A stretch of 64,000 nt of DNA from Myxococcota bacterium (GTDB lineage: Bacteria; Myxococcota_A; Polyangia; Nannocystales; Nannocystaceae): assembly GCA_039028615.1 (NCBI GenBank), contig JBCCHT010000005.1, positions 160,001-224,000 on the forward strand, in the 5' to 3' direction. The notes beneath the pieces were generated by a model. It was not told the DNA's origin. It was given only the letters and a program-made list of their open reading frames with translations, and searched no databases. A program made the translations under genes and the position numbers. Below are positions 26,797 to 35,194 of the stretch, piece after piece (within the stretch, counting starts at the first letter, position 1; each line of letters starts with the position of its first letter).

Positions 26797-28350
26797 TCAG
26801 TCGACCCATCCTTGCAGGAACCAACTTCGTCGGACTCGGTCGTAGAACACCCACAAGATTTCACCGGATTGGGTCTCGACGAAGTAGTAGTCCCGCTCGA
26901 CCGTGCGCACCCACCATCCTCCGCTGATGCGATAGGGCCCCTGGATCGAGCGGACCGGGCCGCGATGACCGAGCCAGGCCTCGGGTTCATGACGAGGGGG
27001 GCTGGGCAATCGCTGGGGCCGAGGCAGCAGGCGGCGGACCAGCGGTGTCGGCTCGGGAGCGGGGGGCTGGGTGCCCGGCTCGATCGGAGTGCCCACGACC
27101 TCGGGACGCGCGAAGCCGATCTCGCCGATGGGCTCCCACGCAAAGCGAGCCTCGGGCAGGTGGGCTTCGCGGAGCTGAGCGCGGGTGACCGCCTCGGGCC
27201 CCAGCCAGGCACGGAGCCGTGCGAGGGCTCGGGCGGCGGCATCGAGATCGCGGCGGGCCTGGGTTCGGAACAACGCCAGCTGCCCCGGTGCGGCCTCGAC
27301 CCCGGCCAGCTCCAGCACGATTTCCTCCACGGGGGCGTCCAGGGTCGCGGCATCGAGGCGCAGGCGAACCAGATCGATCACCATTGGCTCGTCCAGGGTC
27401 GGGCGCGCGGGCTCGATGCGTTCTTCGTGCGGCTCGGCGTGGTCGAGGTGCAGGCGCAGGTGCAGCGCGGTCATGGCCTGGTGGCGCCCCGCGAGCTCGA
27501 CCATCAGGTCGTGCAGCATGCTCTTGATGAGGAAGAGCAGCCGCGAACGGTCGTCGTCGGGCGGCTCGATCTGCTTGGTGGTGCGAACCGGATCGACGAT
27601 GGCGCGGGGCTGAAGCGGAGCCCAGCCATCGCTGGCGCAGGCGTGCAGCTGGGCCGCCGCCTCTCCGAAGCGCGCCCGCAGGTCGGGAGCGGGGAGGGCG
27701 AGCAGCTGCCCCAAGGTCCGAACCTCGAGTCGCCGGAGCCCCTCGCGAGCCTTGGCCGGCATCGATAGCTCGACCAGCGGCACCTGGTCGGCGGCCTTCC
27801 GCTCCGCGCCCGGATCGTCGAGTACCCACACGCCCCGCCGAACCCGAGCCAGCGCGTGACATCGAAATCGGTGGTAGCCCACGACCACCGTCGAGCGCAG
27901 CGACAGCTCGGCCATCGCGCTGACGACCGCGTGACCCCAGTGCTCGAAGCTGGTGAACAAGGGCACCATGCCCGAGGGGTCGAGCCAGAAGGTCCCGGGT
28001 GCGCCCTCGACCTGTCGCTGCGGGGTGGCGGTGCGTTGGGCGGCCTCGATGCGCGGCGAAAAATCCTGCAGGCGTCGGACCACCTGCTCGATCGTCTCGT
28101 CGATCTGCTCGGGTCCCACCACACCCGCCCGGACCCCCGCGTCCAGGCTCTGCGCGGCGGCGTAGCTCATGCCGGGACGAATGCGGGATCGTTGCGCGTG
28201 CTCGTTGACCCACTGCACCTCGGCTTGCGGGCGGTCGTCGGCGACCACCACCACCGCGCTGTTGGCCCACGTCGGCTCGCGGCGCAGCAGCAGCTGGAGA
28301 GGTAACGCCGGCACTTCGAGGCATGCGGCACGGTCGTGAAGGGCGGACAT
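26797..28350 (-). CDS. imuB: ImuB, inactive Y-family polymerase of the mutagenesis cassette
   Basis: VNEHAQRSRIRPGMSYAAAQSL, FSPRIE, LEVRTLGQLLALP..L.ARFG, QLALF clamp-like motif, GPYRISGGWW..RDYY..W.LQGWVD. Confidence 0.9.
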   Translation of the reverse strand: MSALHDRAACLEVPALPLQLLLRREPTWANSAVVVVADDRPQAEVQWVNEHAQRSRIRPGMSYAAAQSLDAGVRAGVVGPEQIDETIEQVVRRLQDFSPRIEAAQRTATPQRQVEGAPGTFWLDPSGMVPLFTSFEHWGHAVVSAMAELSLRSTVVVGYHRFRCHALARVRRGVWVLDDPGAERKAADQVPLVELSMPAKAREGLRRLEVRTLGQLLALPAPDLRARFGEAAAQLHACASDGWAPLQPRAIVDPVRTTKQIEPPDDDRSRLLFLIKSMLHDLMVELAGRHQAMTALHLRLHLDHAEPHEERIEPARPTLDEPMVIDLVRLRLDAATLDAPVEEIVLELAGVEAAPGQLALFRTQARRDLDAAARALARLRAWLGPEAVTRAQLREAHLPEARFAWEPIGEIGFARPEVVGTPIEPGTQPPAPEPTPLVRRLLPRPQRLPSPPRHEPEAWLGHRGPVRSIQGPYRISGGWWVRTVERDYYFVETQSGEILWVFYDRVRRSWFLQGWVD

Positions 28351-29990: not shown

Positions 29991-30902
29991 CTATCCGTTC
30001 GGGAACAGCTTGTCCTCGATCGCAGCAAGTACCACTAACTCGTCCTCCTTCACCCCGGCACTTGCCTGAGCGATGGTGACCGCCCCCGTCGTGGTCGCGA
30101 GTCTGACCTCCTCGGTCGCATGGCTCAGTGTGTCGAGCGCATTGCCGAAGTCGGCCAGGCTGACGTGGACGCGGCTCAGGTCCACTAGCGCGGATGGGAC
30201 TCCTCCGAGGCCTGCGGACCATGCTGAAAGGAGTGGCAAGACTGCGGCTTTCTCCTTCGCAACGAATCGCCCATCCGCACGTGCGACGTAGACGAGTACG
30301 AAAACCATTGCGGTGAGTTGGTCGAGGTCGGTGGCTTCGACATCTACGGACCCAACGGACACCTCAATAGTGCTCTTGGCACCAGCGGATACGTTCGCAG
30401 GCCTACGAACAAATGACGGTGAACGGTGGCAGAGATGTTCCGCGAAACCGCGTGCATCGAGGGGGTGGCTCATTCCGTCGATGCTGGCTCCTACTACGCG
30501 ATCTGCCCGGAATGTTCGCCAGCCTGCCCGGAGTCTGCACCATCCTCGGAAATAGACGAACCCGTTCTTCTCCCAAACTGATCTGACTTCCACGATCCGC
30601 CGCGTCTCGTTGCCCATGTAGTCGCGGTAGGCGAGGTCGACCGCGAGAACCTGATCCGCGGGCAGCGAGCGGTTCGATGGCTGAGCGACAAGGGAGCGAG
30701 TGGGTCCTGGTGTGCTTGGCGTCGCCTCGGTGGGGCTCGGTTGTTCGTTCTCTCGTGCGCGTCCAAGACTCAGAGACTCCCACGGATCCGGCCGTTCCGG
30801 CTCGTCAGACCAGGGAGAGCGTCGAAACGTCACCCAACCGAGTAACCCCACGACGGCGGCCACTCCCAGGCACACCAACAGAACGATGAGGTTGTGATCC
30901 AT
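29991..30902 (-). CDS. TM-anchored WYL-domain protein with TerB-like C-terminal domain
   Basis: N-terminal TM; YRDYMGNETRRIVEV..YFRGWCRLRAGWRTFRADRV (WYL); VLVYVARADGRFVAKE (TerB-like). Confidence 0.8.
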   Translation of the reverse strand: MDHNLIVLLVCLGVAAVVGLLGWVTFRRSPWSDEPERPDPWESLSLGRARENEQPSPTEATPSTPGPTRSLVAQPSNRSLPADQVLAVDLAYRDYMGNETRRIVEVRSVWEKNGFVYFRGWCRLRAGWRTFRADRVVGASIDGMSHPLDARGFAEHLCHRSPSFVRRPANVSAGAKSTIEVSVGSVDVEATDLDQLTAMVFVLVYVARADGRFVAKEKAAVLPLLSAWSAGLGGVPSALVDLSRVHVSLADFGNALDTLSHATEEVRLATTTGAVTIAQASAGVKEDELVVLAAIEDKLFPNG

Positions 30903-30983
30903 GGGCCGGGCACCCGACTGTCCCGTGGTTTTTCTCCACGGTGCAAACTGCCCGTTCGGGACGGCGCGATTATCTGGGCTGCG

Positions 30984-32231
30984 CTAGCGCAGTCGCCCTT
31001 TGTGGCCTTCGCTGCGCAGCTGCTCGTCGATGTCTCGTCGAACCTCTCGCCCTTGCTTCTTCAGGGCTCGCATCCGTCGACGCTGTCGCGATGCGTTCGG
31101 AATGGCACCGTCCAGGCACGCCCGAATCTGCTTGCGCATGTTGTGGAAGTCGCGGCTCATGTTGCGCGCGGGGGCGGTCACGCCGAAGTCGAACGCGCTG
31201 ACGATCTTCCCTCGTGCGTACTCCAGCATGTACGTGTTCGGCTCGGCCGTATAGATCTTGGTGTCGCCGGCCATCAGCTTGGCCCAGCTGCCCGGGGCCA
31301 TGACCCGGGGCTCCAGGTCGCCCACGTGGTGGGTTCGCATCTCGCCGATCATGGTCCAGTCGTGGACGTCGACGGTGTAGCGACCGGAGTAGCCGTTGAC
31401 CCCCATGGGGGTGCCAAAGATGATCAGGTACTCGCGGCGCGAGCAGTAGAGCATGCGGTAGTGCCCCAGGGCTCCGCCCGCGAAGTTCCACACCATGCTC
31501 TGCTCGGTGGGCTCGAGCTGCACGGTGGGGAAGGATTCGGTGACGCCCCGGCGGGTGCGATCGAACAGCGCCTGCATCTGCACTTGGTTGTGCAGGTGCA
31601 CGCGGTCGCGCGCGGCGTCGAGGTCGGGGTCGGGGACCGGCGTCTTCTGAGGCGGGTAGGGGATGGGCTCCAGGCTCGGCGGGTGCAGGGCGGAGTCGAT
31701 GGCGATCTGGTGGAGCATCTCCAGGTCGAACACGTGGTCCCGCGCCTTGCGGAGGCACCGGAGCTCGGCACCGGTTCGCTTCTTGGTGCGGCACTCCTGG
31801 ATCTGTGCGGTCGACAGCCGCCGGTCGGCCATGACCTCGAGGCAGTCGATGCGGTCGGAGCCTTCGTAGCCGCGGCAGGTCTCGAGCGAGCGCGGGGTGT
31901 AGCTCCGCTCGGCGATCATTCGGGCGCACTGCAGAGCCTGCGGCGGCGCGTCGGGGGCCGACTCGGCACACAGCGCGAGGGCTTGGGCGTCGAAGTGCCG
32001 GGTCGAGGCGATGGCCTGGCAGGCGTCGCGATCCGCGGTCTCGGTGAACGCGTCGCACAGCGCCTGCGCTTGGGGAGCGGTGCCCTCGACCCACGCGTGC
32101 TTCGTTTTTTCGGCGGCGGGGGCCAGCGGCGGAGGATCGTGTCGGGCGGCGCAACCGAGGCTCAGCAGCACGCTGGCCAGCGAGGCTCGGGTGATGAATC
32201 GACGAAGGGCGGGGGTCCGGGAGCTACGCAT
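30984..32231 (-). CDS. Lipoprotein with Cys-rich repeats fused to an ERG2/sigma-1 receptor-like domain
   Basis: Lipobox LSLGC; VWNFAGGALG, EYLIIFGT..GYSGRY, VHDWT, YMLEYARGKI match recalled ERG2/SIGMAR1 motifs. Confidence 0.85.
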   Translation of the reverse strand: MRSSRTPALRRFITRASLASVLLSLGCAARHDPPPLAPAAEKTKHAWVEGTAPQAQALCDAFTETADRDACQAIASTRHFDAQALALCAESAPDAPPQALQCARMIAERSYTPRSLETCRGYEGSDRIDCLEVMADRRLSTAQIQECRTKKRTGAELRCLRKARDHVFDLEMLHQIAIDSALHPPSLEPIPYPPQKTPVPDPDLDAARDRVHLHNQVQMQALFDRTRRGVTESFPTVQLEPTEQSMVWNFAGGALGHYRMLYCSRREYLIIFGTPMGVNGYSGRYTVDVHDWTMIGEMRTHHVGDLEPRVMAPGSWAKLMAGDTKIYTAEPNTYMLEYARGKIVSAFDFGVTAPARNMSRDFHNMRKQIRACLDGAIPNASRQRRRMRALKKQGREVRRDIDEQLRSEGHKGRLR

Positions 32232-32325
32232 GCGGAGGCTTCGTTGAGGCGGGCGTGATGCACCGAGGGGTCGGCCGCGCGCCGCGCCGAACCGTATCAC
32301 GTCCCTCGTGGGCCTCCACGGACCG

Positions 32326-33675
32326 TCACGCGGGCAGCTCGCGTCGCCACTTGTCGAGAAGGGAGTCGATTCGCTGCTCCAGGGTCCGTCCCTCGGGTTT
32401 GGGGCGTCGCTTTTCGAAGAGTCCGTACCCGGGCAGCAGTGTGGCCCGGCCGAGGGTGCCGTAGCCGAAGTCCTCCCCCGCGAACGCAGACTTCGACCAG
32501 TAGGCGAGTCGATCTCCGCCGCCCGTGACCAGCGCGGTCAAGAAGTCGTGCCAGTCGAACCCCGCGAGCTGGGGCCGGAATTTGCCCGCCGTTCGGTCGC
32601 GCATCGCCTTGATGGGGTCCTCGTCGAGTCTGTCTTTGATCCCGGCCGCCTTCGCCACGCCCTGGACCCACGCTTCGATCTCCCCCGCGTCGGTGAGGTG
32701 GGGAAAGTCGATCATCGCGTGCAAGGGGCTCTTGGGAAGATCGGCGAACGCCTCCTTCGGGTTGTTGCTACCGCGATGGCTGTCGGCGAAGGTGCTGATC
32801 GTCGACTTGAGCTGGGCGAGCTCGACACCCGTCAGACCGTGCGCTGCCTCGGGCACACGCGAGTGCAGCGCGGTCAGGGGAATCTGGCGCGTCATCTGGA
32901 ACTGGAACTCCAGCCTGGGGTGCACGATGACCCACGCGTCGGGCTCGTGAAGGTCGACATCCAGTCCTTCCACGATCTCGCGCAGCGGGATCAGCTCGCC
33001 GCGCGCTGCGTTGCCGACCGCGGTGGCGAGCTGGTCGAGCACACGAAGATCCTCCCTGACATGCTCTTGTCCCCACTGCTCGCGAGTGAGGGGCAAGGTC
33101 ACGATCTCCAGGCGACTGTCGAAGTCACCCACGGTGTCGGTGGTCGCGTTCCACGTGCCGTTGCGGGCACGGAGGCACACGTCTCGCTTGGTGTAGGCGA
33201 TGTGGTCGGCCGGGTTGCGGAGTTCTTTGCCGAGGATGTCGAACGCGGCCTTGCGGCGCCTGCGGAGGTTGTTTTCGGCCTGCAGCGTCCGGGCCCACGC
33301 CGGGCGCAGCGCGGCCCGACTGTTGGAGTCGTTGAGCCGCTTCAGCAGGTTTCCGGTCGGTCCCGTCGGGGTGCCATCGAGGCGTACGATCTGGGCGTCC
33401 GCAAACTCGATCTCGAAACCGGCGGACGGGGGCTCGGCCTCGGCCGCCCTGTCTTCGACCTCTTTGCGGATCCTCTGGCGGCGCTGCTCCGGCGTCTCGT
33501 CCCCGTCTCGTGGGCCAGGCGCGAGTGGTTCATGCAGCTCGAGATCGTCGACGAAGGGGCCGTCGGTCGGACCGGGGTTTCGGCATGCGGCACCGCGACC
33601 GGGTCGTCGTCGGCTGGCCGCCATCCCCGTGCCTCGTGCCCGTCGCAGCCCCGAGCTTCCCCCGCAGGCACCCAT
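32326..33675 (-). CDS. Hypothetical protein, possible amidoligase/glutamine-synthetase-fold domain
   Basis: ATG 1 nt after the upstream stop; GFEIEF, WNATTD..LEIVTLPL, FQMT, LFEKR motifs. Confidence 0.6.
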   Translation of the reverse strand: MGACGGSSGLRRARGTGMAASRRRPGRGAACRNPGPTDGPFVDDLELHEPLAPGPRDGDETPEQRRQRIRKEVEDRAAEAEPPSAGFEIEFADAQIVRLDGTPTGPTGNLLKRLNDSNSRAALRPAWARTLQAENNLRRRRKAAFDILGKELRNPADHIAYTKRDVCLRARNGTWNATTDTVGDFDSRLEIVTLPLTREQWGQEHVREDLRVLDQLATAVGNAARGELIPLREIVEGLDVDLHEPDAWVIVHPRLEFQFQMTRQIPLTALHSRVPEAAHGLTGVELAQLKSTISTFADSHRGSNNPKEAFADLPKSPLHAMIDFPHLTDAGEIEAWVQGVAKAAGIKDRLDEDPIKAMRDRTAGKFRPQLAGFDWHDFLTALVTGGGDRLAYWSKSAFAGEDFGYGTLGRATLLPGYGLFEKRRPKPEGRTLEQRIDSLLDKWRRELPA

Positions 33676-33676
33676 C

Positions 33677-34432
33677 TCAGGCCGCCTCCTGGCCGCGGAG
33701 CAACGAGAACGCCCGCTCGAGGTGCCGCTGCGCTCGCGACAACAACCCGCCGAGGCGATACGACGGCGTCCCGGTCGACTCCAGGCCACGCGCGGCGAAG
33801 GGCCACCGCGGGTCTTCGGCGAAGCCGCTGCCGAGCAGGAACATCAGCGCCGCGAAGCACGGACGGGCCCCGGGGACCTCGTGGAAACCGAAGGCCTCGA
33901 CCTGGTGATCCACATGCTCGACGAATCGACCAAAGGAACGATCGAGCTGGGCCTCCCGGTACTTCGCGGGATAGAGCGTGGACAACAGCACCTCCAGATC
34001 GTCGATGCCTTCGAGATGGTCGAGCCGAAGCCGACGTGCCCGCAGCAGCGCCCGCGTGTAGTGCTCGCCGTGTTCACCCGCGACGTCGGTCAGGTATGCC
34101 AGGGCCACGGCGTCGAGGTCGTCGAGCTTGGGTCCGGCGGCGCCCGGTCGCGCGAGGATCTCGGTCGCCCACGGCAACAGCGGATCGACATCGAAGTCGC
34201 TGCCCAACACCAGGGCCAGGTCGACGTATCGGCAGACCTCGCCCACGGTCTCGAACCCCCGCGCTCGCGCCCGCGTGACCCCGTAGTGCACCGTCCGCTG
34301 CAAGTCGTCCGGCCCGAGCAGTGCGGCGTCGACGGGAAACACCGCGACGATGCGCGCCGCCAGCTCGAGTTCGGTCGCGGCCCAGGCCGCGTCCGCGAGC
34401 GCAAGGGTCTGATCGGAGCGAAGGCTCAGCAC
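33677..34432 (-). CDS. Hypothetical protein with duplicated GF...LGxxF..DP..P(W/F)A repeat, resembling T6SS effector-chaperone-associated proteins
   Basis: GTG with GGAG SD; RGFETVGEVCRYVDLALVLGSDFDVDPLLPWA and FGFHEVPGARPCFAALMFLLGSGFAEDPRWPFA. Confidence 0.7.
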   Translation of the reverse strand: MLSLRSDQTLALADAAWAATELELAARIVAVFPVDAALLGPDDLQRTVHYGVTRARARGFETVGEVCRYVDLALVLGSDFDVDPLLPWATEILARPGAAGPKLDDLDAVALAYLTDVAGEHGEHYTRALLRARRLRLDHLEGIDDLEVLLSTLYPAKYREAQLDRSFGRFVEHVDHQVEAFGFHEVPGARPCFAALMFLLGSGFAEDPRWPFAARGLESTGTPSYRLGGLLSRAQRHLERAFSLLRGQEAA

Positions 34433-34440
34433 AGCGCTCC

Positions 34441-34471
34441 CGGTAGTCCGGGGCGCCGCCGAGTCGATTGC
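34441..34471 (-). promoter_or_regulatory. ECF promoter motif B, copy 1 (before the divergent operon)
   Basis: GCAATCGACTCGGC-N6-CCGGACTACCG. Confidence 0.75.
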
Positions 34472-34564
34472 GAGCGATCCGAAGTTTTTCGCCCGCGCCT
34501 CAGCCGGGCACGTGACCGCCGCCATGGACTCGCGCGGTGGCCCGTGGCAGCCTCGAGGGGCCCC

Positions 34565-35194
34565 GTGGTGGACGATTTCGAGCTTCTGACGGCCTGGCGA
34601 GACGGTGACACCGAGGCCGGGCAGCGGTTGTTCGCGCGCCACTTCGATGCGCTGTTCCGGTTCTTTCGCAACAAGATCGGGGACAACGACGCGGCCGATT
34701 TGGTGCAGACCACGTTCTTGGCCTGCGTCGAGCGGCGGGACGGTTTTCGGGGCGAGAGCAGCGTGAGGACATTCCTGTTCGCGGTGGCGCGGAGGCGGCT
34801 TTATTCGCATCTGGAGTCCATCCATCGGGCGGATCGACGCTTCGACGCGGGGGTGACCTCGGTGGTCGACATCGGGGCGACACCCAGTCAGCTCGTGGAT
34901 CGCAAGCGGTCGTACTCGGTCTTGCTCGCGGCGCTACGCATGCTGCCGGTCGAGACCCAGACGCTGCTCGAGCTGCACTACTGGGAGAAGCTGTCGGGAT
35001 CTCAGCTGGCCGAGGTTTTCGCGGTGGCGGAGGGCACGATTCGTACGCGGCTGCGGCGCGCGAAGCAGCTGTTGGCCGAGGCCATCGATCGCCTGCGCGA
35101 GGGTCCGCCCATGGCGACGGCCGAGGAGAACCTCGAGGCGTGGGCGAGCGAGGTGCGCGAGGAGTTTGCGCGCTCCAAGGGCCCCGAGCAGTGA
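34565..35194 (+). CDS. ECF sigma-70 factor (kinase-associated type)
   Basis: DFELLTAWRDGD, AADLVQTTFL, FRGESSVRTFLFAVARR, EGTIRTRLRRAK. Confidence 0.92.
   Translation: MVDDFELLTAWRDGDTEAGQRLFARHFDALFRFFRNKIGDNDAADLVQTTFLACVERRDGFRGESSVRTFLFAVARRRLYSHLESIHRADRRFDAGVTSVVDIGATPSQLVDRKRSYSVLLAALRMLPVETQTLLELHYWEKLSGSQLAEVFAVAEGTIRTRLRRAKQLLAEAIDRLREGPPMATAEENLEAWASEVREEFARSKGPEQ

Follow-up and report, generated by a model that had tools for sequence, protein, structure and literature searches.

The locus studied here raises the question of what a relative of the human sigma-1 receptor and of the fungal sterol isomerase ERG2 might do in a bacterium when it is built as a putative lipoprotein. The receptor is a ligand-regulated partner of membrane proteins and is not known to have isomerase activity. 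The gene lies in a stretch of 64,000 nucleotides of a myxobacterial contig (the window), the whole of which is matched without difference by one contig of a public run on a marine metagenome, a match that may stem from the same source and is not independent. A sequence-only reading had described a bacterial ERG2/sigma-1 homologue, which is real, yet unsurprising: the family (Pfam PF04622) occurs in 87 of the 401 genomes of the class, and ERG2 was noted in Plesiocystis and mycobacteria in 2009 (Desmond and Gribaldo, PMC2817430). Bacterial homologues were treated again in 2021 (Hoshino and Gaucher, PMC8237579); the supplement of that work records none of them as characterised up to then and places characterised ERG2 in one of three eukaryotic clades, the one that clusters with myxobacteria. 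A C-8 isomerase homologue was furthermore listed for Plesiocystis and Enhygromyxa and not for Nannocystis exedens (Lee et al. 2023, PMC10202945). New here is a conserved clade of ERG2/sigma-1 proteins remodelled at both ends, referred to below as the long form (leader, Cys repeats and basic tail; 19 full-length rows, 13 of them from one genus-level group). No exported or Cys-repeat bacterial ERG2/sigma-1 protein was found in the literature searched, in which subscription papers are thinly covered.

Gene layout, fold and pocket

Codon usage marks the minus-strand frame from 32231 to 30984 as coding (GC at the three codon positions 0.67/0.50/0.88), and an overlapping plus-strand ORF (30894-32258; 0.86/0.51/0.67) was dismissed as a shadow of this gene, the features of which are collected in Table 1. 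In the host genome (12.3 Mb), the 415-residue ORF is the sole PF04622 gene. The 8-mer that holds the upstream TAnnnT is also found in the upstream DNA of the homologue in genome G286; in the largest genus with long forms, a TAnnnT motif stands 7 nt before the GTG in 11 of 11 loci, which suggests a leaderless transcript.

Table 1. Features of the long-form gene and its product (window coordinates).
Feature	Position	Strand	Remark
Whole gene, 415 aa	30984..32231	-	lipoprotein signal, four paired-Cys repeats, ERG2/sigma-1 domain, basic C-terminal helix
Signal peptide and lipobox, residues 1-27	32151..32231	-	Cys27 predicted to be lipidated
Four C-x(10-13)-C helical-hairpin repeats, residues 53-165	31737..32075	-	C59/71, C88/102, C119/130, C147/159
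ERG2/sigma-1 domain, residues 165-384	31080..31739	-	cupin-like barrel; clade-specific C263 and C372
Insertion of ~30 residues between helices α2 and α3	31587..31688	-	Pro-rich loop and longer helix
Basic extension of helix α5, residues 383-408	31008..31085	-	predicted to be gripped by the Cys repeats
Possible -10 hexamer TAnnnT	32291..32296	-	60 nt before the start; weak, promoter role inferred

The product matches PF04622 over residues 210-370 (E 4.6e-32; 111.5 bits against a cut-off of 21) and human sigma-1 (5HK1) with E 1.1e-14, the values for the human and Xenopus receptors ranging from 1e-14 to 1e-12. In an AlphaFold2 model of the 415-residue protein (45 sequences; pLDDT 87, pTM 0.82), residues 165-384 superpose on residues 31-215 of Xenopus sigma-1 (8W4B), that is, on everything after the membrane helix of the receptor, with Z 25.2 and an rmsd of 1.9 Å over 184 residues (next-best fold Z 10.0), and Foldseek returned E 9e-13. 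The protein is a true relative of human sigma-1 and fungal ERG2, a PF04622 member whose cupin-like barrel is, according to the model, closed by helices α4/α5. The sequence-only reading was borne out here by the HMM search and the model alike, including the five motifs it had quoted (residues 249-256, 264-274, 280-285, 289-293, and 332-343) and the equivalents it had named for Y103, D126, and E172. A search of NCBIfam with the 415-residue protein returned no family, and scores in the ESM Atlas stayed below 0.8 and served as leads only. A metal-binding cupin was considered and set aside, the conserved H257 and H290 alternating with pocket-lining strand positions and thus presumably facing outward.

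Y268, S282, Y285, V289, D291, and E337 align with Y103, S117, Y120, I124, D126, and E172 of sigma-1 (chain numbering offset by 4, anchored on E172/E169 as in PMC11224282). The D126-type pocket of the receptor (hydrophobic residue at 124, Asp126, Tyr120) is present, and the equivalents of E172, D126, Y103, Y120, and S117 are invariant in 20 of 20 long forms despite a barrel identity of only about 50 % between long-form genera. Among the 11 residues of Xenopus sigma-1 reported to contact progesterone (PMC11224282), five recur unchanged here (Y268, F272, Y285, I343, F349), a further five are replaced by other uncharged residues, and C372 stands in the place of the gate residue Y203. In a pocket alignment of 108 rows (sigma-1 numbering), 37 ERG2-type rows, which include all fungal homologues, share a residue set that was defined in the present work and not taken from a paper, namely D124 (37/37), F126 (37/37), Q133 (36), and H/N152 (37/37); yeast Erg2 is absent from the alignment and is represented by the fungal homologues P0005, P0006, P0015, and P0130. 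The remaining 71 rows combine a hydrophobic residue at 124 with D126, like sigma-1, and 20 of 20 long forms carry V124/D126/M133/A152 (V289, D291, M298, and A317 in the window protein) and none D124 or F126. Judged by these pocket residues, the 415-residue protein is not an ERG2-type isomerase; by architecture, it is not an animal sigma-1 receptor. The further argument that a D126 pocket proves the lack of catalysis was rejected, as D126-type short genes sit in sterol clusters.

With sigma-1 (5HK1; 7W2B, 7W2H, 8W4B), the long form shares the α2-α5 fold, the five pocket residues named above, the hydrophobic position 124 and presumably the location on the non-cytoplasmic side. Unlike the animal receptor, which has a single N-terminal transmembrane helix and hydrophobic, membrane-adjacent α4/α5 (as described in PMC8913746), it lacks the transmembrane helix and has a lipobox and Cys repeats instead, its α4/α5 are polar and basic with α5 about 25 residues longer, the positions of the gate Y206 and of A98 are taken by cysteines, and W89 and H154 are replaced by Ala and Leu. 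Fungal ERG2 and ERG2-type myxobacterial proteins, for example, Plesiocystis pacifica ERG2 (PMC2817430) and the Enhygromyxa salina 'C-8 isomerase' (PMC10202945), have in common with it PF04622, N84, A89, Y103, Y162, E172, the EYARG motif, and hosts with a sterol cyclase. They differ in the four pocket positions given above, and the bacterial ones moreover in being leaderless, of about 185 residues, and equipped with hydrophobic α4/α5.

Leader, Cys repeats and C-terminal helices

The lipobox and the paired-Cys helical repeats noticed in the sequence-only reading are both present. The lipobox pattern, after PROSITE with one position widened to admit Pro, matches 17 of the 19 full-length long forms, including the window protein; the remaining pair have, respectively, a near-lipobox and a signal-like leader that lacks the Cys. 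Together with a basic n-region, an uncharged h-region, and the conserved Cys, features typical of bacterial lipoproteins, this points to Sec export and lipidation at Cys27, whereas Tat export was discarded, as a twin-Arg is not conserved among the long forms. The earlier idea that the repeats replace an N-terminal membrane helix was rejected: the ordinary bacterial relatives are leaderless proteins of about 185 residues without such a helix, and both leader and repeats are additions. The short lipoprotein P0014 (204 residues) shares with the long form the lipobox, the D126-type pocket, a Pro in α4, and an aromatic residue at 85; it differs by the absence of Cys repeats, C263/C372, and basic tail and by an α4/α5 hydropathy of +0.59.

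Each of the four repeat units comprises about 29 residues with two helices and one cysteine pair (pLDDT 89.5). They belong to a wide, unnamed repeat family of secreted proteins, of which 405 representatives were collected at E≤0.001. A crude signal peptide was seen in 130 of 149 repeat relatives examined, as compared to 1 of 107 controls (short PF04622 database proteins), which independently points to export of the long form. The sigma-1 domain occurs in only 4 of the best 150 repeat relatives, and the notion that the repeat domain is unique to sigma-1 proteins was overturned by these representatives and by two signal-bearing repeat proteins in genome G339. Listed members of this secreted C-x(10-13)-C helical-repeat family are P0164-P0312 as well as L128 1066-2526 and L129 1489-2118, both on the minus strand. 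Within the bacterial family of the host, the repeats had at first been seen in 11 of 73 genomes, always with a sigma-1 domain, and in nothing else in the window's genome. The best fold match is a designed repeat protein (Z 6.5, rmsd 4.5 Å), and a Pfam scan of 44 repeat relatives left 37 without a family at E≤1e-4, the rest giving weak and mixed matches; residues 53-165 have no clear match in the PDB or Pfam, by which a new fold is not yet shown.

While the remodelled N-terminus had been described before, that of the C-terminus had been missed. In sigma-1, α4/α5 are described as a membrane-adjacent lid and ligand entry route with Tyr203 as gate (PMC8913746). Averaged over these helices, hydropathy lies below zero in all 19 long forms (-0.13 to -0.83; -0.22 in the window protein) and above zero in all 26 others. 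Counted from residue 342 onwards, the C-terminus bears a net charge of +8 to +20 in long forms versus -2 to +5 in others; the membrane-facing helices are polar and basic in 19/19 versus 0/26. The α2-α3 insertion is found in seven long forms and is missing from the largest genus. C372, which aligns with the engineered Cys203 of 7W2H, is invariant in long forms and occurs in no short form; C263 is likewise invariant and also present in 6 of 50 D126-type short forms. After the lipid-Cys column, each of the 19 long forms has exactly ten cysteines, a number that agrees with complete pairing. With eight of them assigned to the repeats, C263 and C372 would by elimination form a disulfide that ties the gate helix α5 to the barrel.

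In the model, α5 is one helix spanning residues 362-407, the tip of which is predicted to be gripped by the repeats. Folding residues 44-165 and 166-415 as two chains gave a score of 0.77 (best of three controls 0.03), a level attained by 116 of 157 complexes with a solved structure and by 2 of 215 mismatched pairs, although this mark is a rough guide here, where an own alignment was used. The runs agree in at least 68 % of contacts, with a partner pLDDT of at least 87. The predicted contact places A70-I74 and R104-E108 of the repeats against I401, L405, R398, and V397 of the tail (gripped stretch 383-415), the closest named contacts being those of I401 and L405 with A73, I74, R104, and A107; all 19 long forms keep A107 and L405. 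Both pieces come from a single chain, and the searches returned no similar solved structure.

Distribution, phylogeny and genomic setting

Nearly all PF04622 proteins of the class are leaderless, comprise about 185 residues, and start at an FDP motif. A strong oxidosqualene cyclase match is present in 81 of the 87 PF04622 genomes as compared to 169 of 401 overall, in a count in which kin are not independent. The long form occurs in 11 of 73 genomes of the bacterial family and in three genera (8/8 in one, 2/6 in the window's genus), with further examples among database and metagenome proteins; the distant member P0178 keeps the repeats, C263, C372, and D291. All 11 long-form genomes have an oxidosqualene cyclase and none has a second PF04622 gene, while a short gene is found in 32 of the 61 other genomes of the bacterial family. 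This exclusivity is only suggestive, as it rests on three to four lineages (naive p 0.05-0.11).

In trees computed without the pocket-trait columns and α4/α5 (138 columns; 83 of the 108 rows, three partial rows and 22 near-duplicates picked by eye being left out; no animal or yeast row), the long forms fall on one side of a branch (100/98), the ERG2-type rows on one side of another (98/97), and P0014 is sister to the long forms (98/82), with a bootstrap that was not fully settled (0.978). The best tree thus places the long forms outside the clade with fungal ERG2, but joining them was not rejected (AU p 0.246).

The host is likely a sterol-making myxobacterium. A cyclase-like gene with a DCTAE motif lies on the window's contig about 148 kb away (689 bits against TIGR03463, below the cut-off of 851), and the genome furthermore has one ERG24-family gene beside a P450-like ORF (CYP51 by eye), an SdmA-like Rieske gene (342 bits), one EXPERA gene, and two TatT/BstC-family lipoprotein genes. 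As had been noted before, no sterol genes adjoin the locus: no sterol-pathway Pfam family was found among the 10 neighbours scanned, which carries little weight since the sterol genes of the host are scattered over at least three contigs. No anti-correlation of the long form with TatT/BstC or EXPERA genes was detected.

Downstream of the gene, window positions 29991-30902 (-) hold a gene whose product has a WYL domain and, more weakly, a TerB-like one (GC 61.6 % versus 69.2 % for the window), and 26797-28350 (-) gives a weak Y-family polymerase (ImuB-like) match; the upstream ORFs 32326-33789 (-) and 33677-34825 (-), of 487 and 382 residues, have no Pfam or NCBIfam match. A conserved operon across genera was ruled out, the neighbours being kept only inside the large genus, where CobW, a His-rich lipoprotein, a membrane Ser/Thr kinase, and TerC are encoded in the same block as the gene (L034-L041, L061-L064) and the long-form gene often comes in frame after the stop codon of the kinase. 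The kinase gene, with multiple membrane helices, is directly upstream in 10 of 15 loci, all from one genus-level group; TerC is nearby in 10 of 15, and a KshA-like Rieske gene, a further hint at a sterol link, is downstream in 3 of 15. In G000 and G286, the long-form gene stands at different places.

Other loci of the survey also deserve mention. A degenerate squalene-hopene-cyclase-like gene (L003 1270-3255, minus strand, G000:C10) is directly upstream of an ORF that by eye resembles an FAD-dependent squalene monooxygenase. In the P0126 cluster (371 residues, 25 members), a D126-type ERG2/sigma-1 domain is preceded by a fused oxidoreductase domain that depends on F420/deazaflavin (TIGR00026 with 90 bits, cut-off 46), giving a possible two-step sterol-ring enzyme. 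In genus g13, with PF04622 in 0 of 11 genomes, no more than 3 kb separate an EXPERA/EBP-family gene from an ERG24-family gene (G302:C1:3715749-3718888, G346:C716:9-2872), and the former is a candidate for a bacterial C-8 isomerase of the EBP type. In two genomes of the window's genus, an ERG2-type short gene shares a cassette with genes for an SdmB-like SDR and for an FAD-dependent oxidoreductase from the ketosteroid-dehydrogenase superfamily (L047 2773-6094, L048 1423-5511); these cassettes are at different places and have no close match in G000.

Candidate functions of the long form

We give about even chances to the long form binding sterols in the cell envelope as an exported protein on a lipid tether, be it as carrier, scavenger, or sensor, in line with the periplasmic or surface sterol-binding protein of the sequence-only reading. 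A D126-type bacterial protein would have gained a lipoprotein signal and then a repeat of secreted proteins, after which its hydrophobic lid would have been lost and α5 fixed by disulfide and clamp. Following Sec export, lipidation at Cys27, and formation of five disulfides, one of them C263-C372, the domain would hang from its lipid anchor and no longer rest on the bilayer through α4/α5. A sterol or steroid could enter past α4 and pack in the hydrophobic zone with its polar end held by E337/D291/Y285. Since the domain lacks the D124/H152 pair of ERG2-type proteins, it would bind the ligand and let it go again without isomerising it. BstC of Methylococcus capsulatus, a sterol-binding protein of a periplasmic-lipoprotein family (TatT; PMC10942540), would be comparable in the way it works only, as its all-helical fold is unrelated and the bst genes cluster with sterol genes, whereas the long-form gene does not. 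Several observations speak against sterol binding. A D126-type short form adjoins the cyclase in G159, and others stand beside an ERG24-family gene in G262 and G390; with such neighbours, the D126 pocket may be catalytic. Moreover, there is a single PF04622 gene per long-form genome, as expected if the long form did the job of the short one, and the host already has two lipoprotein genes of the TatT family, which includes a known bacterial sterol carrier (BstC; PMC10942540). Co-occurrence with the cyclase is uninformative inside the bacterial family (68 of 72 genomes have it), and the polar lid fits a more soluble ligand than free sterol.

Some of these points would suit an envelope sterol double-bond isomerase (Δ8 to Δ7, or 8(14)) that replaces the cytoplasmic short ERG2 and uses E337/D291 for acid-base chemistry, a reading which appears doubtful and in which the 'sterol-modifying' part of the sequence-only reading, weakened by the missing D124/F126/Q133/H152, survives. 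It would account for the lone PF04622 gene in each of the 11 long-form genomes (an exclusivity limited by the few lineages behind it), for the invariance of the five pocket residues in spite of barrel divergence, and for the D126-type short forms in sterol gene clusters. The host's cyclase, single ERG24-family gene, and SdmA-like gene would make a Δ8 substrate, an EXPERA/EBP match is missing in 5 of the 11 genomes, and a union with the ERG2-type clade is tolerated by the AU test. On the other hand, the best tree separates the two groups even with trait columns removed, characterised ERG2 falls into one eukaryotic clade only (PMC8237579 supplement), the lid that should take the substrate from the membrane is polar, and 9 of the 11 long-form genomes have a single ERG24-family gene and hence no clear downstream Δ7 reductase. 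By analogy with the amine ligands of the receptor, a surface decoy or scavenger of a non-sterol cationic or amphiphilic molecule (an amine lipid, sphingoid base, alkaloid, or a competitor's sterol-pathway inhibitor) can also be envisaged, improbable as it seems: the glutamate that anchors amine ligands in sigma-1 and that progesterone binding does without (PMC11224282) is invariant here, the polar lid and the soluble, disulfide-rich build would agree, and the gene, which occupies different places in G000 and G286, keeps no partner from genus to genus. Yet the family tracks sterol synthesis across the class (81/87), the pocket stays hydrophobic, and no candidate ligand was named by any analysis. 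Very improbable, finally, is a ligand-binding subunit in a signalling pair, its partner being the membrane-anchored Ser/Thr kinase whose gene lies immediately upstream in the largest genus. Such a pairing would recall sigma-1, itself a ligand-regulated partner of membrane proteins, and draws on the 10 of 15 loci in which the kinase directly precedes the gene. It is missing in G000, G286, and G111, however, the best G000 matches of the kinase span the kinase domain only (~44 %), in those loci a separate -10 motif seems to precede the gene, and synteny within one genus reflects kinship.

Returning to the sterol-binding protein, a bolder version, to which we hold only tentatively, is that of a water-soluble sigma-1 receptor, in which a polar lid, a disulfide-stapled gate helix, and a clamp of secreted repeats would have yielded an exported sterol receptor or carrier. 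The natural ligand of sigma-1 and its ancestral job are open questions, and the long-form clade represents a natural experiment in taking the sigma-1 fold off the membrane. If this version is true, the protein would serve as a model of the sigma-1 pocket that needs no detergent, and the split between D124/H152 and D126 would explain an isomerising branch as opposed to the binding-only sigma-1 branch; the long form should, presumably, also purify more easily than the animal receptor. ERG2-type leaderless, D126-type leaderless, short lipoprotein, and long lipoprotein members together form a panel for the residues of isomerisation. Should the protein be a plain isomerase or an amine binder, its significance would be more modest. 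For bacterial sterol biology, the long form is a candidate for extracytoplasmic sterol handling by a non-Bst fold.
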